Shown: positions 6,648-64,000 of the stretch, in pieces | How positions within the stretch are numbered: position 1 is the stretch's first letter | How the letters are laid out: each line of letters starts with the position of its first letter | From: Patescibacteria group bacterium | GTDB taxonomy: Bacteria; Patescibacteriota; Microgenomatia; UBA8517 | NCBI GenBank assembly: GCA_026416845.1 | Contig: JAOAEL010000002.1 | Coordinates: 111,422 to 175,421, forward strand | Length of the DNA: 64,000 bases | Direction: 5' to 3' | The notes under the pieces: model-generated | Seen by the model: only the letters and a program-made list of their open reading frames with translations | What the model was told of the DNA's origin: nothing | Databases searched by the model: none | Program-made: the position numbers and the translations under genes

Positions 6648-6777
6648 ATCTTCCTTTAAGAAGATATCACGAATAATCAACTAATGATATAGAACAAAAC
6701 CCAAAAACTGAAGCTATAATTATTTTGCTCCAAATAACAAATTGCCCCAATTTTCGTTAATATCAAAAATGACAAAT

Positions 6778-7161
6778 CTAATCATGGTGAATACCCAAAA
6801 GATGCTTTGCTCCATGCTCGATAAGGTAATATAACCACTCATCAAGTGATTTGTTTGCAGCTTTAGCTTCATCTTTGGCCTTCTCGTAACACACCACAAT
6901 ATCTCCTAATCTATTTATTCCATCCGGATCAGGTAAAAAGTCTCTCACTTCGGAATAAGCAAACGACAAAACATTGTGAAGATTGTTTGGCTCAAATAAA
7001 TATTTCCTCGCGAGATTTAACATCTCTGAATAACCAGTTATCCTAATAGAAACTTCACAATCATCCTGTACTTTATTTCTTAAAAAATTAGTTAAATTTC
7101 CAACTATTAAACGCTCATTTATAGGATACTTAAAAGGATTTGATATAAATATCTTTAGCAT
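6778..7161 (-). CDS. ybeY: endoribonuclease YbeY (rRNA maturation factor)
   Basis: 127 aa; C-terminal H..KHLLGIHHD matches YbeY HxxxHxxGxxH metal site. Confidence 0.65.
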   Translation of the reverse strand: MLKIFISNPFKYPINERLIVGNLTNFLRNKVQDDCEVSIRITGYSEMLNLARKYLFEPNNLHNVLSFAYSEVRDFLPDPDGINRLGDIVVCYEKAKDEAKAANKSLDEWLYYLIEHGAKHLLGIHHD

Positions 7162-7162
7162 A

Positions 7163-7708
7163 TCAAAGCTTTACAAAATACAAATTAGGAATATCCATTT
7201 TGTACATTTCTTCGAGAGACAAATTTTTATTTATTCTTAAAATATTCCTAATAACACTTCCACTGGTAATACATAAAACAACTTTTTCTTCATCTAAACA
7301 CAAAACATCGTTAATAAATTCATTAACTCTATTAGAAACTTCCTCATGCGATTCTCCTTTTGGCGGCTTCCTTTTGAACCTTAATTCATAATCTACAAAA
7401 TTATCACTAGAATCATACACTTCAGCATACAATTTACCTTCATTTTCCCCAAAATCACGTTCATTTAATCTTGGATCCATCAAAAGAACAGCATCTTTAT
7501 ATCTTTTCTTTATCTTCCAAGCCATATATTTTGTGCGATTACTTTCCGCATAATAAATTATATCTATTCTTTTTAATTGAAGATTTTTTACAAAATTAGA
7601 TGCTTCTTCTTCCCCTTTTTTGGTAATAGGACCTTCCTTTCTACCTTGAAACCTACCTTCAACATTCCAAACAGTTTCAGGATGTCTCAACAAATATATG
7701 TCAGTCAT
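7163..7708 (-). CDS. histidine phosphatase (PGAM-like) family protein
   Basis: N-terminal LLRHPETVWNVEGRFQGR resembles the RHG catalytic motif region of the histidine phosphatase superfamily. Confidence 0.55.
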   Translation of the reverse strand: MTDIYLLRHPETVWNVEGRFQGRKEGPITKKGEEEASNFVKNLQLKRIDIIYYAESNRTKYMAWKIKKRYKDAVLLMDPRLNERDFGENEGKLYAEVYDSSDNFVDYELRFKRKPPKGESHEEVSNRVNEFINDVLCLDEEKVVLCITSGSVIRNILRINKNLSLEEMYKMDIPNLYFVKL

Positions 7709-11136: not shown

Positions 11137-12249
11137 CTAACGAGATTGAGAGATATCTTGAAAAAATTGTTCTATACTCCCAGCCGAAATTAGTCTTTGT
11201 ATATCATAAGCGGTAATTGCAAAAAGCAATGTTAAAAGCAAGGCCATTCCCACAGTATGCGCGATAGATTCTATCTTAGGTAAAAACTTTTTACCAAAAA
11301 CACTTTCGATTAAGATAAAAAGCAGTCTCCCACCATCCAAAGCAGGAAATGGCATTATATTAAGAATCGCCAGATTCACAGATAAAATAGCAATAAAATT
11401 GACAAAAGCCAAAACACCATAATTTGCCGCTTGAGAAGTTAAAGCATAAATACCAACAGGACCTGTAATGTCTCTAGGAACTATACCTAAAAAAAGCTCG
11501 GAAATCATCTTACCAAAACCAAAAACAACAACCATGCCCCAAAATACGGCTTCTTTGACACCATAGTAAATTCCATAAAAAGGCATTTGCCAAATAGGCG
11601 GAAAATAGTTCTCAGCCGAATTAATCAGAACACCCAAAGGCCCTTCATTCTCAGGCGGGTTAGCCCGAGCCATGACATTTTCTATTGTGACAATTTCTCC
11701 TGAAGGTTTTTTTACTTTTAAATCAATTTCTGAACCTTTTTTTGACTGCATTGTTTTTATAAACTCAGCATTTGTATAAACAGGCTGATTGTCTATCTCT
11801 AACAAAACATCATCTTTAGAAATACCGGCATAAGCGGCAGGAGATTCTTCTGCGACCTCTAAAACCTTGACTTCTCCAGTCTCCCTAGGCACTCCGGTAA
11901 AAGAATAAGTAATAGAAAAAAGAAAAACGGCAAGCAGAAAATTCATTACAACGCCTGCAATCACAATTGAAATCCTAGTCAACTTACCTTTATTAAGAAA
12001 AGACCTTTTAGGATCGATAACTTCATCTTCACTGGTTTCTCCATGAAGCCTTACAAAACCACCAAAAGGAAGCAAATTAATTGAATAAATTGTTTCGCCA
12101 ATTTTTTTGCCCCACACCCTAGGGGGAATTCCAAATCCAAATTCTTCAACCTTTACTCCAGATTTGATTGCGGCTAAAAAATGACCAAGTTCATGAATTA
12201 AAACCAGTATCGAAAGAACTAGTAAAAATAAAATTATTTGAGTTACCAT
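11137..12249 (-). CDS. rseP: RIP metalloprotease RseP (site-2 protease, M50 with PDZ)
   Basis: HELGHFLAA HExxH in first TM, PDZ-like middle region, C-terminal LDGG motif (MPFPALDGGRLL); probable start MVTQIIL at 12249. Confidence 0.8.
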   Translation of the reverse strand: MVTQIILFLLVLSILVLIHELGHFLAAIKSGVKVEEFGFGIPPRVWGKKIGETIYSINLLPFGGFVRLHGETSEDEVIDPKRSFLNKGKLTRISIVIAGVVMNFLLAVFLFSITYSFTGVPRETGEVKVLEVAEESPAAYAGISKDDVLLEIDNQPVYTNAEFIKTMQSKKGSEIDLKVKKPSGEIVTIENVMARANPPENEGPLGVLINSAENYFPPIWQMPFYGIYYGVKEAVFWGMVVVFGFGKMISELFLGIVPRDITGPVGIYALTSQAANYGVLAFVNFIAILSVNLAILNIMPFPALDGGRLLFILIESVFGKKFLPKIESIAHTVGMALLLTLLFAITAYDIQRLISAGSIEQFFQDISQSR

Positions 12250-54007: not shown

Positions 54008-54808
54008 ATGGGAAAAACAAAAACAGCATTCGTATCCGGAATTGACAACCAACCAGTCAAACCTTCTTATGACAAAGCTGCAAAGATGGCAAAAAGAATG
54101 GCAAAGATGGGTTTGGCAAACGCCGACAAACCAATTGTTGCGCAACCAGATACAACATTAACAAATAAAGATGTCGCTAAGGATCTAACAACAGACAAAA
54201 AACCAAGTACCAAAAAAAGTGTTAAAAAACAAAGAAGCGTTAAATACCAACAAGCATCTTCAAAAATTAACAAAAACAATATTTATTCTCTTTCCGAAGC
54301 AATAAGTCTTGTAAAAGAAATTTCATTTACGAAATTTGACAGCACTGTTGAACTTCATTTGGTAGTCAAAAAACAAGGAACAAACGCAAATGTAACTCTT
54401 CCCCACTCATCAGGAAGACAAAAGAAAGTTGAGATTGCAAGCGATGCAACTATAGAAAAATTAAAAGCAGGGAAAATTGACTTTGACATCCTTCTAGCAA
54501 CAGCAGAAATGATGCCTAAACTAGTTCCATTTGCAAAACTGCTAGGGCCTCGCGGTCTTATGCCAAATCCCAAGAATGGCACTATCATAAAATCTGAAAA
54601 AGACGCCGCAAAGTTTGACAGCAATACTCTTTCTGTAAAAACTGAAAAATCAGCGCCTGTAATTCATACAATTTGCGGAAAAGTCAGCCAATCTGAAAAA
54701 GAACTGGAAGAAAATATAAAAGCCATAATTAATGCGATAGGAGTCAAACAAATTGCTAAAGCTTATATCAAATCAACAATGAGTCCTTCTCTGAAGTTTC
54801 AAGTTTGA
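54008..54808 (+). CDS. rplA: 50S ribosomal protein L1 (with Lys-rich N-terminal extension)
   Basis: Core from ~residue 70 (…YSLSEAISLVKEISFTKFDSTVELHLVV…LPHSSGRQKKV…LLGPRGLMPNPKNGT…); ~40-70 aa extra N-terminal Lys-rich sequence. Confidence 0.85.
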   Translation: MGKTKTAFVSGIDNQPVKPSYDKAAKMAKRMAKMGLANADKPIVAQPDTTLTNKDVAKDLTTDKKPSTKKSVKKQRSVKYQQASSKINKNNIYSLSEAISLVKEISFTKFDSTVELHLVVKKQGTNANVTLPHSSGRQKKVEIASDATIEKLKAGKIDFDILLATAEMMPKLVPFAKLLGPRGLMPNPKNGTIIKSEKDAAKFDSNTLSVKTEKSAPVIHTICGKVSQSEKELEENIKAIINAIGVKQIAKAYIKSTMSPSLKFQV

Positions 54809-54828: not shown

Positions 54829-55887
54829 TTACTTTGTCATCCTTCTTTGAGCAATTATTTTACCATGCTTCCTCAATGCAAATTCTAGTTGCCTAACTAA
54901 AAGCTTTTGACTTTCAGGATCTAGACCCGACTTAAAAACTGTTTTAAGAGCTGAAAATTCTGGATCTGCTAAAATTCCTACCTTTAAATTTTGTGTCTCT
55001 GAAGCAAATTGTTCATAAAGCTTTTTACCCTTATCTGTCACCAATTCTTTCCTAACTTTTTCTACACTCATATCAGGAGACTTAAAAACATCTTCTAAAC
55101 CTTGAATCTCACTCATCCCCTGCAATCCAAGATTTGCCGATATAAGAACAATTTTAGCATAACCACCCAAATTAAATTTTCTATCTTGAAAAAACCCAAC
55201 TTGCACCATAGAAAGCTGATCTCCATCATGACAGGCTTGAGAAAACTCGCTACTTCCTGGCTTTCTAACCACAGCAGCTATTTCTTCATCCGAAAACCCA
55301 TTTCTTTCTGCTACTCCTTTATAATAACCTTCAAAATGATGCTCCAAGATTGCAGTTTTAACTTCTTCTTTTACTTCTTCAGGCAAAGCTCCTAATTTAT
55401 TCTCATCCATACAATCTGTCACCCAAAGAATGGCACTATACATATGGTGAGCTAGATCTTTTAAAGCAGGAGAACCATTCTTAGCTTTTTCAAGTATAGA
55501 ACGCTCAGCAGAACTTAAACCTAAAGTTTGGGCAACTTGTTCCCATTTGTCAGATGACATGATTTCCTCCGCTCGCTTTTGATCCCATTTGCCTCTATCA
55601 TGTCCATATTCAAAAAGTTTAATTTTTAAGATCTCTTCTTCTGTCAATCTACGTCCATACAAATCACTTAATATTTCGCTTGAATTTCTTAAAACAGCAT
55701 TCAAATGATCTTTTTGAGACTGACAATCAAATCTTTCCTCTAACAACCGATCAACATCTTTTTTCAAAAAATCTACTGCTTGCCTAAGCATTTCTACTCT
55801 ACTTTCTGAGGATTCAGTTGGCTGTACTTTTTGTTCTTGTTGGTCTTTGCCAGAAAAGTAAAGCTCGCCCGATGATCCTTCTAACAT
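54829..55887 (-). CDS. hypothetical acidic protein (352 aa) encoded antisense between rplA and rplJ
   Basis: Long ORF, Glu/Asp/Lys-rich, no TM; possible His-rich metal site (HHFEGY, GHDRG) but no confident family. Confidence 0.5.
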   Translation of the reverse strand: MLEGSSGELYFSGKDQQEQKVQPTESSESRVEMLRQAVDFLKKDVDRLLEERFDCQSQKDHLNAVLRNSSEILSDLYGRRLTEEEILKIKLFEYGHDRGKWDQKRAEEIMSSDKWEQVAQTLGLSSAERSILEKAKNGSPALKDLAHHMYSAILWVTDCMDENKLGALPEEVKEEVKTAILEHHFEGYYKGVAERNGFSDEEIAAVVRKPGSSEFSQACHDGDQLSMVQVGFFQDRKFNLGGYAKIVLISANLGLQGMSEIQGLEDVFKSPDMSVEKVRKELVTDKGKKLYEQFASETQNLKVGILADPEFSALKTVFKSGLDPESQKLLVRQLEFALRKHGKIIAQRRMTK

Positions 55888-57137: not shown

Positions 57138-57160
57138 TTCAAAAACAAACTTAATTCAAA

Positions 57161-57187
57161 AAAACCTCACGAAAGTGAGGTTTTTTA
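57161..57187 (+). terminator. bidirectional rho-independent terminator (rplL / convergent sigma gene)
   Basis: AAAAACCTCAC-GAAA-GTGAGGTTTTTT: 8-bp GC-containing stem, GNRA loop, T-run; A-run on the other side serves the minus-strand gene. Confidence 0.8.
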
Positions 57188-57252: not shown

Positions 57253-57945
57253 TTAATCATTTGAAAAAGCTTCTCTTACACTCCTTCTTATTCTATGAAT
57301 AACAGATTTAATTTTAGAAACAGACATGCCCATATAATTGGCTATTTCTTCATAAGAATAGCCGCAGGCTAACAAATTAAAAATTAAGCTATTCTCTTTA
57401 CCTAAAAATAAAAACAAATCTTTCACCTTTTCAGCATTTTTTATTTTTTCACCAATTGGTTCAGTTGAACTAGGAATAAAATTTTGTAAATCAAAATTTT
57501 CATCATTATCTCTTGATACATCAAAATAAATCTGCCTTGCCCAAACTCTCTTTTTTCTCCTCAAATAATCTAAGCAAGTATTTCTAATCACCTTAATTAA
57601 CCAAGCTGCAAAACTCGTGCCACATGCTTGCTGTTGACAAGGACTTTTAGTTGATAATAGTTTGTAACATACATCTTGAAATATATCTTCAAAATCTGTA
57701 GGATCAAGCTGATCCTTAAAATTACTAGCAACTCTAATTGTTAATCTAAAAGCAAGACCATAGAAATTTTCCCAAACTTCACTATCGCCTTCTTGTAATT
57801 TTTTAAAACTAATTTGATCAATTAAGCAATATAAACCATCATTTAAAATTTCTTCATTCTGAGGAACCTGATCTCGAATCCGATCGTAAATATCATTCAA
57901 TTCATCAAAAACTGAAATAAATCTTTGGCCAAAAATTTCACACAT
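57253..57945 (-). CDS. sigma-70 family (ECF-like) RNA polymerase sigma factor
   Basis: Region 2-like FAAWLIKVIRNTCLDYLRRKKR and region 4 HTH GYSYEEIANYMGMSVSKIKSVIHRIRRSVREAF; 230 aa. Confidence 0.65.
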   Translation of the reverse strand: MCEIFGQRFISVFDELNDIYDRIRDQVPQNEEILNDGLYCLIDQISFKKLQEGDSEVWENFYGLAFRLTIRVASNFKDQLDPTDFEDIFQDVCYKLLSTKSPCQQQACGTSFAAWLIKVIRNTCLDYLRRKKRVWARQIYFDVSRDNDENFDLQNFIPSSTEPIGEKIKNAEKVKDLFLFLGKENSLIFNLLACGYSYEEIANYMGMSVSKIKSVIHRIRRSVREAFSND

Positions 57946-58098
57946 GTCAATTAATTTCCTTTATTTTAGCAAAATTTTGCAACTTTTGTTTTTTTCAAAA
58001 AAAATAAGCATTTAACTTTATTTTAATTAATGGTAAAATTGGCAAATTATTCAATATCACTAATTAAAAAATACAATAAAAATTAAATATATAACAAA

Positions 58099-59760
58099 AT
58101 GTCAATAGAAACAAAAAATGTACTTTTCCCTTTGCGAACTGCTGACTATGCGAATTACCTTGCGACGCAAGAGAAACCACAACCAATTGAACTCTCTGAG
58201 GAAGAACGCAAACAAATCATTGCATACGAGGCCAAGCTTTACGAAGAGCTCTCCCCAACACTCAAAAAAATGGTTGGCATACACACAATATTTCCTGAAT
58301 ATTTAACTACCAATGAGGGCTGGCAAATGGCACAAAGCATATACTCAGCAAAAAATCCTGAAATTGTCAACATGCCAAAACCACAAAGCCTGGAAGAAGC
58401 AATAAATATTTTCAATAAATTGCGTATTTACAGTATAGACAAAGAATTAAGATCAGAAATCGAAGCAAAATCTCTAAGATACGCACGAGAAAAATTTATA
58501 GCAGGAATAGATAAGAATACAAATCCTGATGATTTAGAAGATCCAATTACTGCATCAAGGGTTTACAATCCCAAAACACTAATTCAAAAAACGCAAGAGC
58601 TAAGAGAATTCAAAAGAAAGTTAAAAGCAAGACGCGAAGGAAACACTCATAACAAAACTCAAACCAATTTGGAAATAGCAAAAGAAATAATTGACAGAAT
58701 ATATCAAAGATACATTAACGTCAGGTTGGCGGTGCTATATGAGGATGCTTTTGTGGCTTTAAACGATCCAGCAATTTCAGAAGAAGACAAAGAGAAAATA
58801 CGCAAACTATTCCCAGGACATAACACCAATGACAAAGACAGAAGAATTCAAACTCTTGGAAGAATTGAAAAATTTTACCAAGGAGCTGACAGAAAAGAAG
58901 GATCTTCCTACTTCCCAACAATATCCGAATCTATCGCATCAGCTATTGAGCAAAAAATGAGAATTGAAAATCAAGAAGGAAATGAATTATACCAAGAACA
59001 CCAAAAAATAAAAATTGACGCCAATAAATACCAAGAAATTGCAAACGCTGTCTTAGACCGCATGGGAGCAACTCAAGCTGGTTGGAAAACTAAAATACGT
59101 GAAAAACCTGGTGTGGCTACAGATCCCAAAGAAAAAATATACTACATACCAAAAGATTATAGTAGAAGTTTGCCCGCAACTATACAAAGTATTGCGCACG
59201 AAGCAGAAGGCCATATCTTGCGTGATTTAAACAAATCTAAACTCCCACTTAAATTACTAAAATATGGAAACACAGGACGGATTCAACAAACCGCAGAAGC
59301 CGCCGCTGTTTTTGTTGAGGAAGAAACAATACGGCGGGTATATGGACGAGAGAGACAAATGACAGGAACTTACTATATAATTATGAGAGAACGGGAAAAA
59401 GGAGGAAGCTTTAAGCATTGTGTTATAGCACTTGTAAGAAAAGGTAAAGATCCCAAAACAGCATTTACTAGTACTTTAAGAATCTTCAATAATGGCAGAA
59501 TCCCTCTTAATGATCCATCGCACCACATAGTAAATACAGAAGAACTTGCTTACCATGAACCAGTGGCAGAAAGGCTGGCAAAACTTGGTCTTAGTAAACT
59601 TCTTTTTGTCTCAGCAGTTGATATTTATACATACCAAGACTTGGTTAGAATTGGGATGTTACAACTTGATAAAATTCAAGAACCTCAATTTATAACAGCT
59701 GAAGTTGCGCTTGAAGTTTTAAGCAGATATTCTTCAGAATCAGAAAAGACAGTTAACTGA
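58099..59760 (+). CDS. HExxH zinc metallopeptidase-like protein (candidate DUF1704/MATCAP-type carboxypeptidase)
   Basis: 553 aa; single HExxH (IAHEAEGHILR) in C-terminal half; divergent from sigma gene; adjacent to three RimK-like ligases, the genomic context reported for DUF1704. Confidence 0.5.
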   Translation: MSIETKNVLFPLRTADYANYLATQEKPQPIELSEEERKQIIAYEAKLYEELSPTLKKMVGIHTIFPEYLTTNEGWQMAQSIYSAKNPEIVNMPKPQSLEEAINIFNKLRIYSIDKELRSEIEAKSLRYAREKFIAGIDKNTNPDDLEDPITASRVYNPKTLIQKTQELREFKRKLKARREGNTHNKTQTNLEIAKEIIDRIYQRYINVRLAVLYEDAFVALNDPAISEEDKEKIRKLFPGHNTNDKDRRIQTLGRIEKFYQGADRKEGSSYFPTISESIASAIEQKMRIENQEGNELYQEHQKIKIDANKYQEIANAVLDRMGATQAGWKTKIREKPGVATDPKEKIYYIPKDYSRSLPATIQSIAHEAEGHILRDLNKSKLPLKLLKYGNTGRIQQTAEAAAVFVEEETIRRVYGRERQMTGTYYIIMREREKGGSFKHCVIALVRKGKDPKTAFTSTLRIFNNGRIPLNDPSHHIVNTEELAYHEPVAERLAKLGLSKLLFVSAVDIYTYQDLVRIGMLQLDKIQEPQFITAEVALEVLSRYSSESEKTVN

Positions 59761-59775
59761 ATAATTCATTCAAAC

Positions 59776-60441
59776 TTATTCACTTTCTTCAGGTTCCCTG
59801 CCAGTCATTACAAGCCAAACCACCTCAACTAACTTAGGATCTATAAAAGGAGTTTGGTCATCCGGTCTTGGAACCCCTGCATCCTTAAAAAGTTCATCCA
59901 AATCTTGCAAAGCCGTTTGTAAATCTTCTTCTCTTTCACCAAACAATCTTTCAATTTCTAGTCTTGCACTTTTCCATAAGCTTTGGTTTAACCTATCAAC
60001 AAAAATACCAATCTCTTCATCAGTTTCCCCAAGCGCAATACCAAGAAGAATGACTACCAACTTCCTCAAACCTTCTGAGCGGAGATTGCCATCTTTTTCT
60101 TGAGATCTTGACTCACTGAACTCCAAATTTTTTACAAAATCTTCGATTTTCCTAAATCTTTCTTCGCTCAACACTCTTTCTCCCTCTAGCCACTGTAAAT
60201 CACTTATAATTTTATCATAAACGTCGCCAGCGTCCCCGTCGTCAACGTTATCAATAGAAACTAGTGCTCCAGAAAGCTCTAGAGCGCGTCTCATTACTTC
60301 TCTTTGGTCATCACTAAACATCAAAACAACAGGTTCATTTACAATATCTTCTAATGAAGCAAACTTACAATCAAGCTCTTTTAATCCTGGAACTTTTTCC
60401 GTTAAAGGGACCTGACCAGGCTGTTGTTCATAATTTGGCAT
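59776..60441 (-). CDS. acidic hypothetical protein ending in …TGREPEESE
   Basis: 221 aa, strongly acidic, no TM; C-terminus Glu-rich like the RimK substrate S6. Confidence 0.5.
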   Translation of the reverse strand: MPNYEQQPGQVPLTEKVPGLKELDCKFASLEDIVNEPVVLMFSDDQREVMRRALELSGALVSIDNVDDGDAGDVYDKIISDLQWLEGERVLSEERFRKIEDFVKNLEFSESRSQEKDGNLRSEGLRKLVVILLGIALGETDEEIGIFVDRLNQSLWKSARLEIERLFGEREEDLQTALQDLDELFKDAGVPRPDDQTPFIDPKLVEVVWLVMTGREPEESE

Positions 60442-60446
60442 AAATA

Positions 60447-60494
60447 TTAACGATATTATACAACATTAAACGATATTATACAACATTACTTGTA
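60447..60494 (-). promoter_or_regulatory. tandem 20-bp direct repeats each carrying an extended -10 (TGTTGTATAAT) plus an inverted third copy; candidate promoter/operator for the acidic-protein gene
   Basis: aacgatattatacaacatta x2 (60447-60486) followed by cttgtataatacaa; reverse complement reads TGTTGTATAATATCG twice, 5-45 bp upstream of the 60441 start. Confidence 0.4.
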
Positions 60495-61384
60495 TAATAC
60501 AATTTCTCAAAATACTCCACAATCGCTTTTGCCACATTAATTCCAGTTGACTCAATTCCTTCAATTTGCGGACCGGGGTTTACTTCCAAAACATAAGGCT
60601 CGCCTGTTTTTGCATGAACCATCACATCAACTCCTGCTATTTCAGTTTGCATAATTTTAGCCGCCAGTTCAGCTACCTCTTGAACCTTTTTGTTTTTGGA
60701 AAGATCAAATCTTGCCACACTGCCCCCTTGGCTTACATTGCTTCTGAAATCGCCTTTCTTGGGAGTGCGTTTGATTGCTCCAACTGCCTTGTACCCAACG
60801 CAAAACACGCGAATGTCTCCATCATTTGGTATAAATTCTCTGACAACACAAGATTTGACATTTTCTGTCAACAAGGAAACCATTTTTTCAAGCTCTATTT
60901 CATCTTTGACAAGATACACATCCTCTCCTCGATGTCCTTGGCTTGCTTTGACTATAAGTGGGAAGGTAAATTGTTTTTTTATACTCTCAACCGATCTATC
61001 AGAGAATAAAATCGCACTTTTCGGATAATTTATTTTTGCTTCTGTTTGTTTCAAATAATCAATCGCTGGAGTTTGGTAATAATTGTACGCAGGATCAATG
61101 GATTTTTTATTCACTATTATGGTTTTATAGTTTTTGTGAAGATACAAAGCCGCTGTAAACCACTCCCATAGTCTACTGCCAACAATCATATATATAAGAT
61201 CATATTCTTCAAGCTTTTTGCCACTTGAAAGCATTGGCTTGAAATTATTTTTGTCCGCCAAAATTACAAGTTCAGATGCCAAACATCCATCAACACTATG
61301 ACCCTTTTTTTCTGCTTCTTCCTTTATACGAAGGAATTGAGGCTTTTTGGTAAGACCAGCTATTAGTATTTTCATTTTTTTCAC
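60476..61384 (-). CDS. RimK-like ATP-grasp ligase (alpha-L-glutamate ligase family) paralog 1
   Basis: 302 aa; ATP-grasp core …FPLIVKASQGHRGEDVYLV…REFIPNDGDIRVFCVGYKAVGAIKRTPKKGDFRSNVSQGG…GVDVMVHAKTGEPYVLEVNPGPQIEGIE. Confidence 0.8.
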   Translation of the reverse strand: MKKMKILIAGLTKKPQFLRIKEEAEKKGHSVDGCLASELVILADKNNFKPMLSSGKKLEEYDLIYMIVGSRLWEWFTAALYLHKNYKTIIVNKKSIDPAYNYYQTPAIDYLKQTEAKINYPKSAILFSDRSVESIKKQFTFPLIVKASQGHRGEDVYLVKDEIELEKMVSLLTENVKSCVVREFIPNDGDIRVFCVGYKAVGAIKRTPKKGDFRSNVSQGGSVARFDLSKNKKVQEVAELAAKIMQTEIAGVDVMVHAKTGEPYVLEVNPGPQIEGIESTGINVAKAIVEYFEKLYYTSNVV

Positions 61385-61389
61385 AAAAT

Positions 61390-62310
61390 CTATCTTGCGT
61401 TTGCTATTGCATATTGCAAATATTCCTTTGTTATATTTTCGCCAGTCGCCTCCTCCATACCAAGCATGCCGGGCGTATGATTGGCTTCAAGCACATACCT
61501 TCTGCCATCTTGTGTGATTAAAATATCTACCCCCCCAATTGTCAGTCCTACAGCGTCAAGGGCTTTTCTTGCGAGATCAATATCTTTTTGATCTGGAGCA
61601 AACAATTCAACTGAACCACCAAGCGAAAAGTTTGCTCTGAAATCACCTTCTTTGGGAATTCGTTTCATACAATAAACTTTTTCTCCAATCACTAAAATTC
61701 TAAGATCATGAATATAAGGAATAAATTCCTGAATCACAAATCGCTCTGCTTCCTTTTTTAATTTAAATTCCTTTTCATTCGGATCAAGACCCAAACTATC
61801 AATTAAACTTTCTCTTTCTTTTATAAACAAGTCAAGCTCTTCCTTGCTAGCTACTTTGTAAATCCCTTTACCCCTTCCTGTTTTAGTTAGCTTGATAATT
61901 GCAGGATAGCCAACATTATTCACAACTTCTTCATACATGCTAAAATAGGACACATGGTAAGTCTTGGGCATTGGTATGTTGTAAGTTGCCAACTTTATAA
62001 AATCGGTTAATTTATTAATAGAATATTTGTGATTAAGAAGATTATTGTCAAAAACTTTTACTCCCTTTGTTTTGTAATAAGAAACCAAAGCGGTAATTGC
62101 GTGAAGTAATTTGAAAATCGCACGAGTGATAATTATATCTCCCTTTCTAGGCTCGTAACCTTCAACCTTTATTTCGCCATTTACTATCGAATAATTAAAA
62201 TCTTTGAGGCTAAGCAAACAAAAATCATAACCTAAAGCCTGCGCCTCTTGCGCAATTCTTCCTTGCTCTCCCATCTCAGGGCTTGTGGTGATAACAACTA
62301 TTCTTGCCAC
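61390..62310 (-). CDS. RimK-like ATP-grasp ligase paralog 2
   Basis: 306 aa; …YPAIIKLTKTGRGKGIYKV…QEFIPYIHDLRILVIGEKVYCMKRIPKEGDFRANFSLGG…GVDILITQDGRRYVLEANHTPGMLGME. Confidence 0.8.
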   Translation of the reverse strand: MARIVVITTSPEMGEQGRIAQEAQALGYDFCLLSLKDFNYSIVNGEIKVEGYEPRKGDIIITRAIFKLLHAITALVSYYKTKGVKVFDNNLLNHKYSINKLTDFIKLATYNIPMPKTYHVSYFSMYEEVVNNVGYPAIIKLTKTGRGKGIYKVASKEELDLFIKERESLIDSLGLDPNEKEFKLKKEAERFVIQEFIPYIHDLRILVIGEKVYCMKRIPKEGDFRANFSLGGSVELFAPDQKDIDLARKALDAVGLTIGGVDILITQDGRRYVLEANHTPGMLGMEEATGENITKEYLQYAIANAR

Positions 62311-62332
62311 AACAACGATTTTATCACAAATC

Positions 62333-63649
62333 TTATTCTTTTTTCTTATCTACATCTATCCGTGGTTTCACCAGAAAACCAGCCAAATCTTTTCTGCCAA
62401 TAATCACTTTCCTTTTAAGATTTTTGCGATCTGTAACACCAGCCATCGTGGTAATTTTTTTGCCTTTTAGCCAATATGTAAAAACAATTATAGGTCGATC
62501 TTCCTGCACTCCAAGAGCGCTTTGAACAGTTCTTTTTTTGATAATATTTTCAGGTCTGATTAAATTTAATTCTTTCGCAAGCTTAACATCTATAGAAGTT
62601 CTCCACGCGCCAGTGTCAATTTTTGCCAAGACTTTCACTTTCTTCCGCTTTGACGATTTAATGGCAATCTCTTCCAAAGCTGATATGACTTCCTTATCCT
62701 TTTTCAAAACTTTTTCTGAGAAGTATTCTGAAAAAAGCGCTTTTGCTATATTTACCCCATGTTCAGCATTTCTCACTTTTAATTCATCAACTCTATCAAG
62801 CCTGCGTTTCAGCCCCGCTTGATTGGCAAGCTGTATTGCCAAGCCAGGCATGCTATTTAATTCAAGCACCATTGGTCCTTTTTCGGGATGAATCACAATA
62901 TCCGCTCCTAAATATCCAAGTTTGCTTACTTCTTGGCATTTGACTGCTATATCCAAAATTTTGTCCCAGTAAGGAATTTTAATTCCATGAAGCTTCCTTT
63001 TAGTGCCTGGTTTAAACTTAATAGGTTGACCATACATCACAGCTTTTGTGGTAATTCCAGTTGCTATATCAATACCCACCCCTATTGCTCCCTGATGAAG
63101 ATTAGCGCGCCCACCTGAATCTTTAGTGGGAAGCCTAAGCATTGCCATAACAGGCACTTTGTTAAAAACAATTATTCTAATATCCGGTGTCCCACGATAA
63201 GCATACTTGCGAAACGCTTTGTCCCGACCAACATATTCTTGAATAAAAGCAACATCAGGAATATTCCCGTAAGAAAAAGCTCCTTCAAGAATATCCATTA
63301 CATGAAGCTGAAAATCAGAAACAATCATCCTTTTCCTCTGTGTTGTCACCCAATATACACTACCATCTTTAGTTTTCACCTTTTTTTTGATAACGATAAT
63401 GCCCTCACCTCCAAAACCTTTTGAAGGCTTTATAGCAAAAGCCCCTGGTATACTTTCCCAATCAAAAGAAAATACATCGGAGGGAGATTTAAACTTGGCA
63501 TAAATTGTTGGAGTCGGTATTTCAGCTTTTTTTAGAACTTTAGCAGTCAAAAGTTTTGACGCTGCAATACGTTTACCCTTTTTTGTGTTGTAGGGATAAG
63601 AATAAAGCTTGGTGCGAGCATTAAGTCCTAAAATAGAAGATAGTTTCAT
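62333..63649 (-). CDS. RimK-related ATP-grasp ligase fused to C-terminal retropepsin-like (DTGA) protease domain
   Basis: 438 aa; N-terminal ~300 aa ATP-grasp (…IKPSKGFGGEGIIVI…FIQEYVGRDKAFRKYAYRG…DIRIIVFNKVPVMAMLRL…GGRANLHQGA…GADIVIHPEKGPMVLELNSMPG); C-terminal ~120 aa with VLAKIDTGAWRTSID aspartyl-protease signature (the so-called ATP-dependent zinc protease domain that accompanies RimK). Confidence 0.75.
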   Translation of the reverse strand: MKLSSILGLNARTKLYSYPYNTKKGKRIAASKLLTAKVLKKAEIPTPTIYAKFKSPSDVFSFDWESIPGAFAIKPSKGFGGEGIIVIKKKVKTKDGSVYWVTTQRKRMIVSDFQLHVMDILEGAFSYGNIPDVAFIQEYVGRDKAFRKYAYRGTPDIRIIVFNKVPVMAMLRLPTKDSGGRANLHQGAIGVGIDIATGITTKAVMYGQPIKFKPGTKRKLHGIKIPYWDKILDIAVKCQEVSKLGYLGADIVIHPEKGPMVLELNSMPGLAIQLANQAGLKRRLDRVDELKVRNAEHGVNIAKALFSEYFSEKVLKKDKEVISALEEIAIKSSKRKKVKVLAKIDTGAWRTSIDVKLAKELNLIRPENIIKKRTVQSALGVQEDRPIIVFTYWLKGKKITTMAGVTDRKNLKRKVIIGRKDLAGFLVKPRIDVDKKKE

Positions 63650-63655
63650 TTTACT

Positions 63656-64000
63656 TTAACTTTTTATTAATTTTCTAAACCTCCAAAGTTCAAGTAATCT
63701 AAGACCAACATACTGCCCAAGCAAAATGTTCGCGACAAATACACCAATCATCAGCACCTCCGGGTTCAAAAGTGCAAAAACTTGAATTGGTTCAAGAGTT
63801 AAAAACAAATATGAAACAAGAGCAAGCAAAAGAGTTTCTGTTGTTATTCCAACAGCGTAACGAGCGCTTTTGCCAAGCTGAGCTTTTGTAAAATCTTCAG
63901 CCAATAAAACTAATATAAGAATAGGGAAAATAGATACATTTGCAATGGCAGAAACAGAAAAATACGGGGCAAAAAACAAAAGACACAAAACGCCAAGCAC
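63656..64000 (-). CDS. C-terminal multi-TM fragment of an upstream-starting gene (candidate 7TM partner of the RimK/protease system)
   Basis: 114 aa open to window edge, 3-4 hydrophobic helices; 6 bp upstream of the ATP-grasp-protease fusion, consistent with co-transcription. Confidence 0.4.
   Translation of the reverse strand: MLGVLCLLFFAPYFSVSAIANVSIFPILILVLLAEDFTKAQLGKSARYAVGITTETLLLALVSYLFLTLEPIQVFALLNPEVLMIGVFVANILLGQYVGLRLLELWRFRKLIKS

Follow-up and report, generated by a model that had tools for sequence, protein, structure and literature searches.

The described systems closest to the locus considered here, which occupies positions 57253-64000 of a 64,000-nucleotide stretch (the window) of a Patescibacteria group bacterium of the Candidate Phyla Radiation (CPR; contig JAOAEL010000002.1, assembly GCA_026416845.1), are the bacterial Rlo and Rim systems and the eukaryotic enzymes that modify tubulin tails. 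The Pseudomonas aeruginosa rloABC genes encode RloA, a retropepsin, RloB, an inactive-transglutaminase seven-transmembrane (7TM) protein, and RloC, an ATP-grasp enzyme; in vitro, polyglutamate substrates are cut by RloA, the defects of an rloA1-3 triple mutant are suppressed when rloB or rloC is lost, and rlo mutants are defective in their tolerance of hypo-osmotic conditions, their cell shape, their sensitivity to beta-lactams and their ability to form biofilms (mBio 2025, PMC12239564). In the Rim system, RimK adds alpha-linked glutamates to ribosomal protein S6 (RpsF) at its C-terminus and makes poly-alpha-glutamate, while RimB, a retropepsin endopeptidase that requires ∼5-6 contiguous glutamates, removes them, and a RimBK hybrid carries the protease N-terminal to a true RimK (PMC11957791). 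The tubulin carboxypeptidases MATCAP/TMCP (KIAA0895L) are HExxxH enzymes that trim C-terminal residues and polyglutamylation from acidic tubulin tails, opposing the ATP-grasp ligases TTL/TTLL (PMC10499314). In the CPR locus, relatives of these ligases and peptidases are encoded together, by seven open reading frames, every one of which lies where the initial annotation of the window, made from the sequence alone, had placed it:

57253-57945, minus strand: extracytoplasmic function (ECF)-type sigma-70 factor, 230 amino acids (PF04542, PF08281, TIGR02937)
57946-58098: AT-rich intergenic stretch of 153 bp from which the sigma and DUF1704-like genes diverge
58099-59760, plus strand: long-form DUF1704/MATCAP-like gluzincin metallopeptidase, 553 amino acids (PF08014)
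59776-60441, minus strand: acidic protein p221, 221 amino acids, matching no Pfam or NCBIfam family
60476-61384, minus strand: RimK-like ATP-grasp paralog B, 302 amino acids (PF08443, TIGR00768)
61390-62310, minus strand: RimK-like ATP-grasp paralog A, 306 amino acids (PF08443)
62333-63649, minus strand: RloC-type ATPgrasp_ST ligase with a C-terminal retropepsin domain, 438 amino acids (PF14397, TIGR02291)
63656-64000, minus strand: C-terminal 114 residues of an RloB-like 7TM protein, whose gene runs beyond the window edge (PF14402)

We conclude, with a probability of roughly 0.6, that this region encodes an Rlo/Rim-type system in its CPR form, for the writing and erasing of peptide tails: the ATP-grasps would assemble a tail or polymer that is acidic and probably made of glutamate, the retropepsin and the MATCAP-like peptidase would trim it, and the 7TM protein would couple these activities to the membrane. 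This conclusion builds on which genes and domains are present, on their conserved catalytic motifs and strongly conserved sequences, on the match of one peptidase to MATCAP in structure, and on the conserved operon context and position of the cluster beside rplJ-rplL. By analogy with the described enzymes, the three ATP-grasps, which should be cytoplasmic, would use ATP to join amino acids successively onto a free carboxylate. The added residue would most probably be alpha-linked L-glutamate. As acceptor we envisage free glutamate or else the C-terminus of a protein or peptide, so that poly-alpha-glutamate or an acidic tail would result. Ligation would be limited or reversed by the two hydrolases: the fused retropepsin may cut within glutamate runs as an endopeptidase, like RimB and RloA, and the MATCAP-like enzyme, an exopeptidase in this scheme, may shorten the product from its C-terminal end, in the manner of MATCAP/TMCP on acidic tubulin tails. 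The 7TM partner would tie the activity, or its product, to the membrane.

The minus-strand genes run in the order 7TM, RloC/retropepsin fusion, RimK A, RimK B, p221, with gaps of 6 bp (7TM/fusion), 22 bp (fusion/RimK A) and 5 bp (RimK A/B), plus 34 bp before p221. The tight packing that had been noted at the outset is thus borne out, if not the range of 6-22 bp then given for it. The DUF1704-like gene is inverted, lying between the p221 and sigma genes at the rplL-proximal end of the cluster; no convincing inverted repeats flank it. It is convergent with the p221 gene, with 15 bp between the two stop codons (59760-59776) and no terminator hairpin there, such that transcripts of the opposite strands would overlap.

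The 438-residue fusion protein matches PF14397 at 230.8 bits (cut-off 31.4) and TIGR02291 at 265.4 bits, under the equivalog cut-off of 314.2. All three ATP-grasps had been described as RimK-like; the 302- and 306-residue enzymes are indeed of RimK type, but the third belongs with RloC/ATPgrasp_ST. Its ATP-grasp domain spans residues ∼1-300 and its retropepsin domain residues ∼325-438 (nucleotides 62336-62677), with a predicted catalytic aspartate, D345, encoded at 62615-62617. Among the Pfam assignments proposed for the locus, those to Sigma70_r2/r4, MATCAP/DUF1704, RimK and 7TM_transglut proved significant, whereas the retropepsin family PF05618 scored 23 bits, below its cut-off of 27. When the retropepsin domain alone was compared with PDB by phmmer no significant match was obtained, its DTGA being aligned to 9g59_A, a 'putative ATP-dependent zinc protease', at an E value of 1.4. 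Among 128 fusion homologs, which include sequences from Moraniibacteria, Saccharibacteria and Dojkabacteria, conservation of the motifs K-x-D-T-G and G-R-x-x-L is nevertheless 95% or more. More than 7,000 homologs were found at E≤1e-10; the best 120 of these are all full-length (425-468 amino acids) and 61-90% identical to the window protein, most of them matching PF05618 and several of them named Woesebacteria or Patescibacteria. No signal peptide was found in the fusion protein.

We compared the locus with related loci, cited below as L001 and so on; co-occurrence among them is given as counts in a small sample (nine loci from genome contigs and 12 from metagenomes) and not as statistics. 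Between the window and L003, the fusion is 90% identical, as against 77% for L10, 82% for L12 and 73% for L1, and we take this as a sign of strong purifying selection on the fusion.

The 7TM fragment in the window scores 44.9 bits against PF14402 and finds its best NCBIfam match in RloB. The part of the gene beyond the window edge can be reconstructed from its orthologs in L014 and L003: that of L014 has 295 residues, is 95% identical over the fragment (PF14402, 81.8 bits), and consists of an N-terminal transmembrane segment, a low-complexity linker of ∼65 residues and the 7TM bundle. PF14400 (Transglut_i_TM) was not found in any of the 292-306-residue 7TM orthologs, while RloB of Legionella has both PF14400 and PF14402. 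The membrane component foreseen in the initial annotation is therefore present as a 7TM domain, without the transglutaminase part, which the full-length ortholog of L014 lacks. The 7TM and ligase genes are adjacent and co-oriented, and the same order is kept in 14 related loci (listed as L003-L011, L013-L015, L023, L024 and L026). L012, in which tblastn gave no 7TM match, is the sole CPR locus without a 7TM gene beside the fusion gene.

Set against the classical Rlo system, represented in our sample by the Legionella locus L013 with RloA (PF05618, 78.7 bits), RloB (PF14400 and PF14402, 508 residues) and RloC (316 residues, without a retropepsin domain), the CPR locus has the same ligase family (PF14397/TIGR02291), the fusion being 40% identical to Legionella RloC over residues 1-283, the same 7TM family (PF14402), the same retropepsin family with its DTG, and a 7TM gene immediately upstream of the ligase gene. 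It differs in that the retropepsin forms the C-terminal part of the ligase protein and, having no signal peptide, is predicted to be cytoplasmic, whereas Pseudomonas RloA is secreted; open reading frame and domain scans of the window region gave no separate secreted retropepsin of the RloA type. Furthermore, the CPR RloB-like protein lacks the periplasmic transglutaminase-like domain (∼295 versus 508 residues), and the CPR cluster adds one to four RimK paralogs and, frequently, a MATCAP-like peptidase. The host also differs, 96% of RloB matches being in Proteobacteria (PMC12239564). With the Rim systems RimABK and RimBK the locus shares a cytoplasmic ATP-grasp glutamate ligase, a cytoplasmic retropepsin and the precedent of a ligase-protease hybrid, but it has no RimA, and has in addition the 7TM partner and the metallocarboxypeptidase. 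Since the protease is C-terminal to an RloC-type ligase here and N-terminal in RimBK, the two fusions are independent.

The two RimK-type enzymes match PF08443 at 117.3 bits (302 residues, RimK B) and 80.6 bits (306 residues, RimK A; cut-off 21). RimK B also passes TIGR00768 (146.1 bits, cut-off 143.4), which RimK A does not (117.7 bits), and both are far from the S6--L-glutamate ligase equivalog NF007764, at 96.1 and 64.5 bits respectively against a cut-off of 331. The orthologs of RimK B are 84% identical in L003 and 72% in L005, those of RimK A 80% and 65%, while RimK A and RimK B are only 27-31% identical to each other. From these figures they look like old, non-redundant enzymes, which would fit distinct roles such as initiation and elongation, or the addition of different residues. 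The idea that the ligase paralogs are differentiated, put forward at the outset as stepwise addition of different residues, is thus consistent with the conservation of each RimK (65-84%) and their low mutual identity. Readings of the ATP-grasps as cyanophycin or glutathione synthetases were rejected, the scores being far under the respective cut-offs, as was a graspetide reading (that is, a ribosomally synthesised and post-translationally modified peptide), for which the 306-residue paralog gave weak TIGR04187 and TIGR04184 matches and far stronger RimK-family scores; p221, with 221 residues and no repeated core, was also rejected as a graspetide precursor.

The 553-residue protein belongs to the MATCAP/DUF1704 superfamily, as a divergent, long-form member that has an additional helical region at its N-terminus. 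It scores 31.5 bits against PF08014 (gathering threshold 27), over positions 104-276 of the 365-position profile. A word-indexed search gave three relatives; with their profile, an exhaustive HMMER search gave 383 cluster representatives (E≤1e-3), of which 231 reach E≤1e-10, and almost all have a length of ∼560-700 residues. The initial annotation had described an HExxH protein. There is no HExxH in the sequence, the motif being HExxxH (H367-E-A-E-G-H372, encoded at 59197-59214), with E400 encoded at 59296-59298, but the metal site itself is conserved: E368, H372, E400 and Y485 are invariant, and H367 at least 90% conserved, among 85 homologs that are 19-39% identical to the protein, so the lack of conservation that the annotation had named as speaking against its proposal is not seen. 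The modelled protein matches MATCAP in structure and has a MATCAP-like catalytic fold; a Foldseek comparison with PDB gave weak gluzincin matches only and no MATCAP. No signal peptide was found. The protein shares with the proteobacterial DUF1704 protein known as QEGLA (TIGR02421) the PF08014 family, the HExxxH motif and the association with ATP-grasp genes. It differs in length, the CPR proteins having ∼600 residues against the 368 positions of the TIGR02421 model, and in forming a separate family (∼383 cluster representatives). The match to TIGR02421, at 31.5 bits against a cut-off of 338.65, stops at profile position 292 of 368, before the C-terminal part with the QEGLA motif, and the C-terminal conserved block reads TEELAYHEP and not QEGLA.

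The neighbourhoods of the related loci support the view that ligases, peptidases and membrane partner form a linked set, as had been proposed from the window alone. In L015, the 7TM, fusion, RimK and MATCAP-like genes follow one another on one strand with gaps of 1-5 bp; L023 has 7TM, fusion, RimK, RimK and MATCAP-like genes on one strand; L024 and L026 have 7TM, fusion, RimK (followed in L026 by a methyltransferase) and MATCAP-like genes on one strand, converging on rplL-rplJ; and L019 has fusion, MATCAP-like, RimK, RimK and penicillin-binding protein (PBP) genes. RimK is followed by a MATCAP-like gene in L016, which lies beside rplKAJL, and in L020. A 12-sequence alignment served both to scan for loci of the MATCAP-like family and for the comparison with PF08014. 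Of 14 informative MATCAP-like loci, nine have an ATP-grasp neighbour, six the fusion gene, and six rplJ/rplL within 2 kb. The neighbourhood predictions mentioned in the initial annotation reportedly go back to Iyer et al. 2009.

The initial annotation had also taken the locus for an accessory insertion at the site where rpoB would follow rplL. This is contradicted by the relatives: adjacency to rplJ-rplL, the stalk operon, is kept in Dojkabacteria, Saccharibacteria, another Patescibacterium and the lineage of the window, the fusion is as conserved as L10 and L12, and no open reading frame of the size of rpoB was found in the flanks of the relatives adjacent to rplJ-rplL. In L008 and L009 (Dojkabacteria) and L011 (the Patescibacterium), rplA-rplJ-rplL is followed on the same strand by the 7TM gene and then by the fusion, and in L007 (a Saccharibacterium) rplJ-rplL lies ∼1 kb upstream on the other strand. 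The position of the cluster beside the stalk operon is old and widespread in CPR.

The rplL-proximal end, by contrast with this position, varies among close relatives, which differ in whether and in which orientation they have the MATCAP-like gene, and in the sigma gene, an extra RimK and, in L001, a nucleotidyltransferase-like open reading frame. L003 has 7TM, fusion, RimK, RimK, 221-residue protein and sigma genes on one strand, converging on rplL-rplJ, and has no MATCAP-like gene; the ancestral layout is L003-like, with an ECF-like sigma gene directly after p221. L005, whose fusion is 66% identical, has 7TM, fusion, RimK, RimK, 220-residue protein, RimK and RimK genes, with rplL-rplJ ∼6 kb away and no sigma gene. 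L001, whose flanks have ∼90% nucleotide identity to those of the window, has rplL, sigma (minus strand), RimK (minus strand) and MATCAP-like (plus strand) genes. Downstream of its MATCAP-like gene, where the window has p221, L001 carries an open reading frame (11664-12081, plus strand, cut by the contig end) in which a GS...DxD-type motif (IGSINRGNADASVSDIDIVF) suggests a nucleotidyltransferase. In L002 a MATCAP-like gene 39% identical to that of the window lies 45 bp after rplL on the same strand.

Several further features of these neighbourhoods are recorded here in their own right. In two unrelated loci the ligase cluster is followed immediately by a gene for a class A PBP (transglycosylase and transpeptidase; L006, 13870-16377; L019, 5192-7885), and L006 has a YdjC-like gene between its two RimK genes. 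In the Saccharibacterial locus L012, a 423-residue protein with a RimJ/RimL-type GNAT domain (PF13302; 13375-14646) follows the fusion and two RimK genes, and in L009 the L1 protein (6771-7469) ends ...FEMDSEE, an acidic tail like the C-terminus of RimK-modified S6. Within the window itself, a 352-residue open reading frame (54829-55887, minus strand), without a significant family match, lies between rplA and rplJ on the opposite strand, and is kept at the same position in L001 (69% identical) and L003 (62%) as a lineage-conserved interruption of rplKAJL. L1 of the window (54008-54808, plus strand; 266 residues) has a lysine-rich N-terminal extension of ∼85 residues that is retained in L001 and L003; alignments with L1 of other CPR classes begin only at residues 76-92.

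The two remaining genes of the locus, for p221 and the sigma factor, are less widely distributed. p221 has a pI of 4.3, with 52 aspartate and glutamate against 26 lysine and arginine residues. Its homologs occur only in L003 (30% identical) and L005 (33%), at the same position and with 30-38% identity overall; a profile built from the three sequences gave no further homolog in any of the fetched loci, and a database search returned p221 alone. Its C-terminus is conserved as W-x-x-[MI]-T-G-R-E, followed by an acidic end, -PEESE in the window, -IVED in L003 and -IVEED in L005. Such an end resembles, at the level of sequence, the acidic S6 termini acted on by RimK (...DNADE and ...GDSEE; PMC11957791). 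With its conserved acidic C-terminus, p221 is the best candidate for a protein acceptor in the sub-lineage of the window. Upstream of p221 there is a perfect 20-bp tandem duplication (60449-60488; AACGATATTATACAACATTA twice), covering the last codons and stop of the 302-residue RimK gene and the 34-bp spacer; each copy contains, on the minus strand, TGTATAAT, an extended -10-like box that could be an internal p221 promoter.

The sigma factor has region 2 (PF04542, 41.9 bits) and region 4_2 (PF08281, 27.6 bits) and scores 65.3 bits against TIGR02937 (cut-off 42.9). The Pfam and NCBIfam scans gave no match to region 3, which with regions 2 and 4 only places it among the ECF (group 4) factors, and no recognisable anti-sigma domain nearby. 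It was seen in no genomes but the three closest (those of the window, L001 and L003), where the factors are 31-33% identical to one another and the flanking genes 73-97%. The sigma gene is a lineage-specific add-on, outside the conserved system. Like p221, it stands out for its divergence, both reaching 30-33% identity from genome to genome where the genes around them reach 73-97%, which points to very fast divergence or repeated replacement of these two genes. The regions upstream of the 7TM gene in L014 and L003 share a TATAAT-type -10 box, which gives no support for ECF control of the operon. Our promoter scan covered sigma-70 consensus sites only; in the divergent region it gave a candidate sigma-70-like site on the plus strand (58012-58039; TTAACT-16-TAAAAT, with TG upstream), a match to consensus only. 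Between the stops of the convergent rplL (57137) and sigma (57253) genes lies a hairpin (57160-57186; A5-CCTCAC-GAAA-GTGAGG-T6), missed by the pattern scan, which is among the few short stretches of the spacer kept in L001 (blastn) and is a probable bidirectional intrinsic terminator.

It is important to set out the results that weigh against an Rlo/Rim-type writing and erasing system. PF08014 is barely passed by the 553-residue protein, and is matched at E≤0.01 by only three of 12 close family members, which together with a TIGR02421 score far below cut-off marks a divergent, peripheral subfamily; the family profile, compared with the chains in PDB, gave no MATCAP sequence and nothing relevant. 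Five of the 14 MATCAP-like loci (L017, L021, L022, L032 and L002, whose contig ends just downstream) have no ATP-grasp neighbour, so the MATCAP-like peptidase is not strictly tied to the ligases. For the CPR members, moreover, we infer the identities of both the added residue and the acceptor from the described systems, and p221, present in three loci, cannot be a general substrate. The cultured Saccharibacterium S. epibionticum has a RimB and RimK pair only, both non-essential in transposon sequencing, and no PF14402 or PF08014 annotation, from which it follows that the system is not universal in CPR. Finally, Pfam ties ATPgrasp_ST to sugar transfer and surface polysaccharide.

What the system acts upon is a matter on which several readings differ. 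A more specific form of our conclusion, differing from it in the target, is that the ligases build a peptide, possibly on a precursor, that the 7TM protein exports or anchors, with the wall or surface as the target and the peptidases in a quality-control role. We regard this as possible, if tentative. The sole membrane component, the 7TM protein, is a conserved neighbour of the fusion in every CPR locus except L012, the Pseudomonas rlo phenotypes (hypo-osmotic tolerance, cell shape, beta-lactam sensitivity, biofilm; PMC12239564) are those of the envelope on this reading, YdjC and polysaccharide pyruvyl transferase genes stand in or beside the clusters of L006 and L011, and the MATCAP-like gene of L021 lies within a glycosyltransferase/flippase cluster for polysaccharide biosynthesis. 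The class A PBP genes directly after the clusters of L006 and L019 point the same way, but such adjacency is confined to these two loci, both CPR peptidases are predicted to be cytoplasmic, with no signal peptides, where Pseudomonas RloA is secreted, and the extracytoplasmic transglutaminase-like domain of RloB is missing. Were glutamate tails instead put on and taken off a translation protein, in the style of RimK/RimB and S6, the adjacency to the stalk operon would be explained: the cluster lies within ∼2 kb of rplJ/rplL in the window, L001, L002, L003, L007, L008, L009, L011, L016, L024 and L026 (∼6 kb in L005), in several CPR classes and whether the orientation is co-directional, convergent or divergent, with the MATCAP-like gene of L002 directly behind rplL. 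There is also the precedent of RimK itself (PMC11957791), and the RimJ/RimL-type GNAT domain after the RimK genes of L012. We nevertheless think this unlikely, given that L10 and L12 of the window end ...KQKA and ...VEIK, neither of them acidic, that no S6 gene (rpsF) was found in the window or any fetched locus with an approximate E. coli S6 sequence as query, that a 7TM membrane partner is unexpected for ribosome modification, and that L004, L006, L010, L012 and L015 have no rplJ/rplL near the cluster; synteny, furthermore, could be merely inherited. Equally doubtful in our view is a cycle between free glutamate and poly-alpha-glutamate that adjusts the pool of the chief anionic osmolyte when osmotic conditions shift and has the 7TM protein as its sensor. 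Rlo mutants are sensitive to hypo-osmotic conditions (PMC12239564), and in Photobacterium RimK is induced 52-fold and the QEGLA/DUF1704 protein 27-fold at low salinity, with a GshB-type ATP-grasp, at the locus tag next to that of the QEGLA protein, up-regulated likewise (PMC10308900). Nothing in the CPR loci, however, bears directly on glutamate buffering, which would leave the two or more conserved RimK paralogs and the acidic tail of p221 unexplained.

Two further alternatives concern the rplL-proximal end. The sigma factor and p221 could be a fast-evolving regulatory pair, for instance like a sigma and an anti-sigma factor, in which the enzymes edit the tail of p221 and the output is transcriptional. 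In L003 the sigma gene comes immediately after the p221 gene on one strand, both proteins diverge as described above, and the terminal motif of p221 is conserved. However, this sample is of three genomes, L005 has p221 without a sigma gene, p221 matches no known anti-sigma family, and the -10 box upstream of the operon is TATAAT and not of ECF type, making us sceptical of such a pair, which we consider quite improbable. As for chance neighbours, or an accessory island recently inserted downstream of rplL, one could point to the differences between the window and the ∼90% identical L001 on both sides of the MATCAP-like gene (sigma, extra RimK and nucleotidyltransferase-like open reading frame) and to the lack of a MATCAP-like gene in L003. 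Yet many distant genomes have the same genes together, separated by 1-22 bp, the adjacency to rplJL spans several CPR classes, the fusion is as conserved as ribosomal proteins, and the AT-rich window (GC 0.29-0.38) shows no compositional break at the locus, around which no flanking repeats or mobility genes were found. This reading, already contradicted by the neighbourhood survey, is very improbable indeed.

Every domain family found here is known already, and the Rlo and Rim systems and the ligase-protease hybrid were published in 2025. The claim that such a locus had not been described does not hold for its core, which is of the Rlo/Rim kind (PMC12239564, PMC11957791), with NCBIfam models existing for RloB, RloA3 and QEGLA/DUF1704. 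In the papers that we searched nothing links these genes to CPR, and the CPR architecture, that is, the RloC::retropepsin fusion, the transglutaminase-less 7TM protein, several RimK enzymes, the long MATCAP-like peptidase and the adjacency to rplJL, appears to be undescribed.

A CPR form of the Rlo/Rim kind offers a lead on the biochemistry of Rlo, which in Pseudomonas affects stress tolerance, antibiotic susceptibility and biofilm formation. The presence of ligase and retropepsin in one cytoplasmic protein argues that both act on the same product, and the added RimK ligases and MATCAP-type carboxypeptidase point to the chemistry of acidic C-terminal tails or polyglutamate. The conservation of the fusion, like that of its ribosomal neighbours, in very small genomes, together with its adjacency to the stalk operon, suggests an important housekeeping role. 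The genetic link between a MATCAP-like enzyme and ATP-grasp ligases, seen here in bacteria, is also relevant to how the enzymes modifying tubulin tails arose. It is conceivable, although we think it improbable, that CPR bacteria possess a compact and strongly conserved C-terminal polyglutamylation code, with three differentiated ATP-grasp writers and two erasers, the retropepsin as endopeptidase and the MATCAP-type enzyme as exopeptidase, whose target would be a protein connected with the stalk operon or with the membrane. If true, such a code would reveal the biochemistry of the Rlo system, and would be a prokaryotic counterpart, possibly the evolutionary source, of the eukaryotic TTL/TTLL-MATCAP tubulin-tail cycle.

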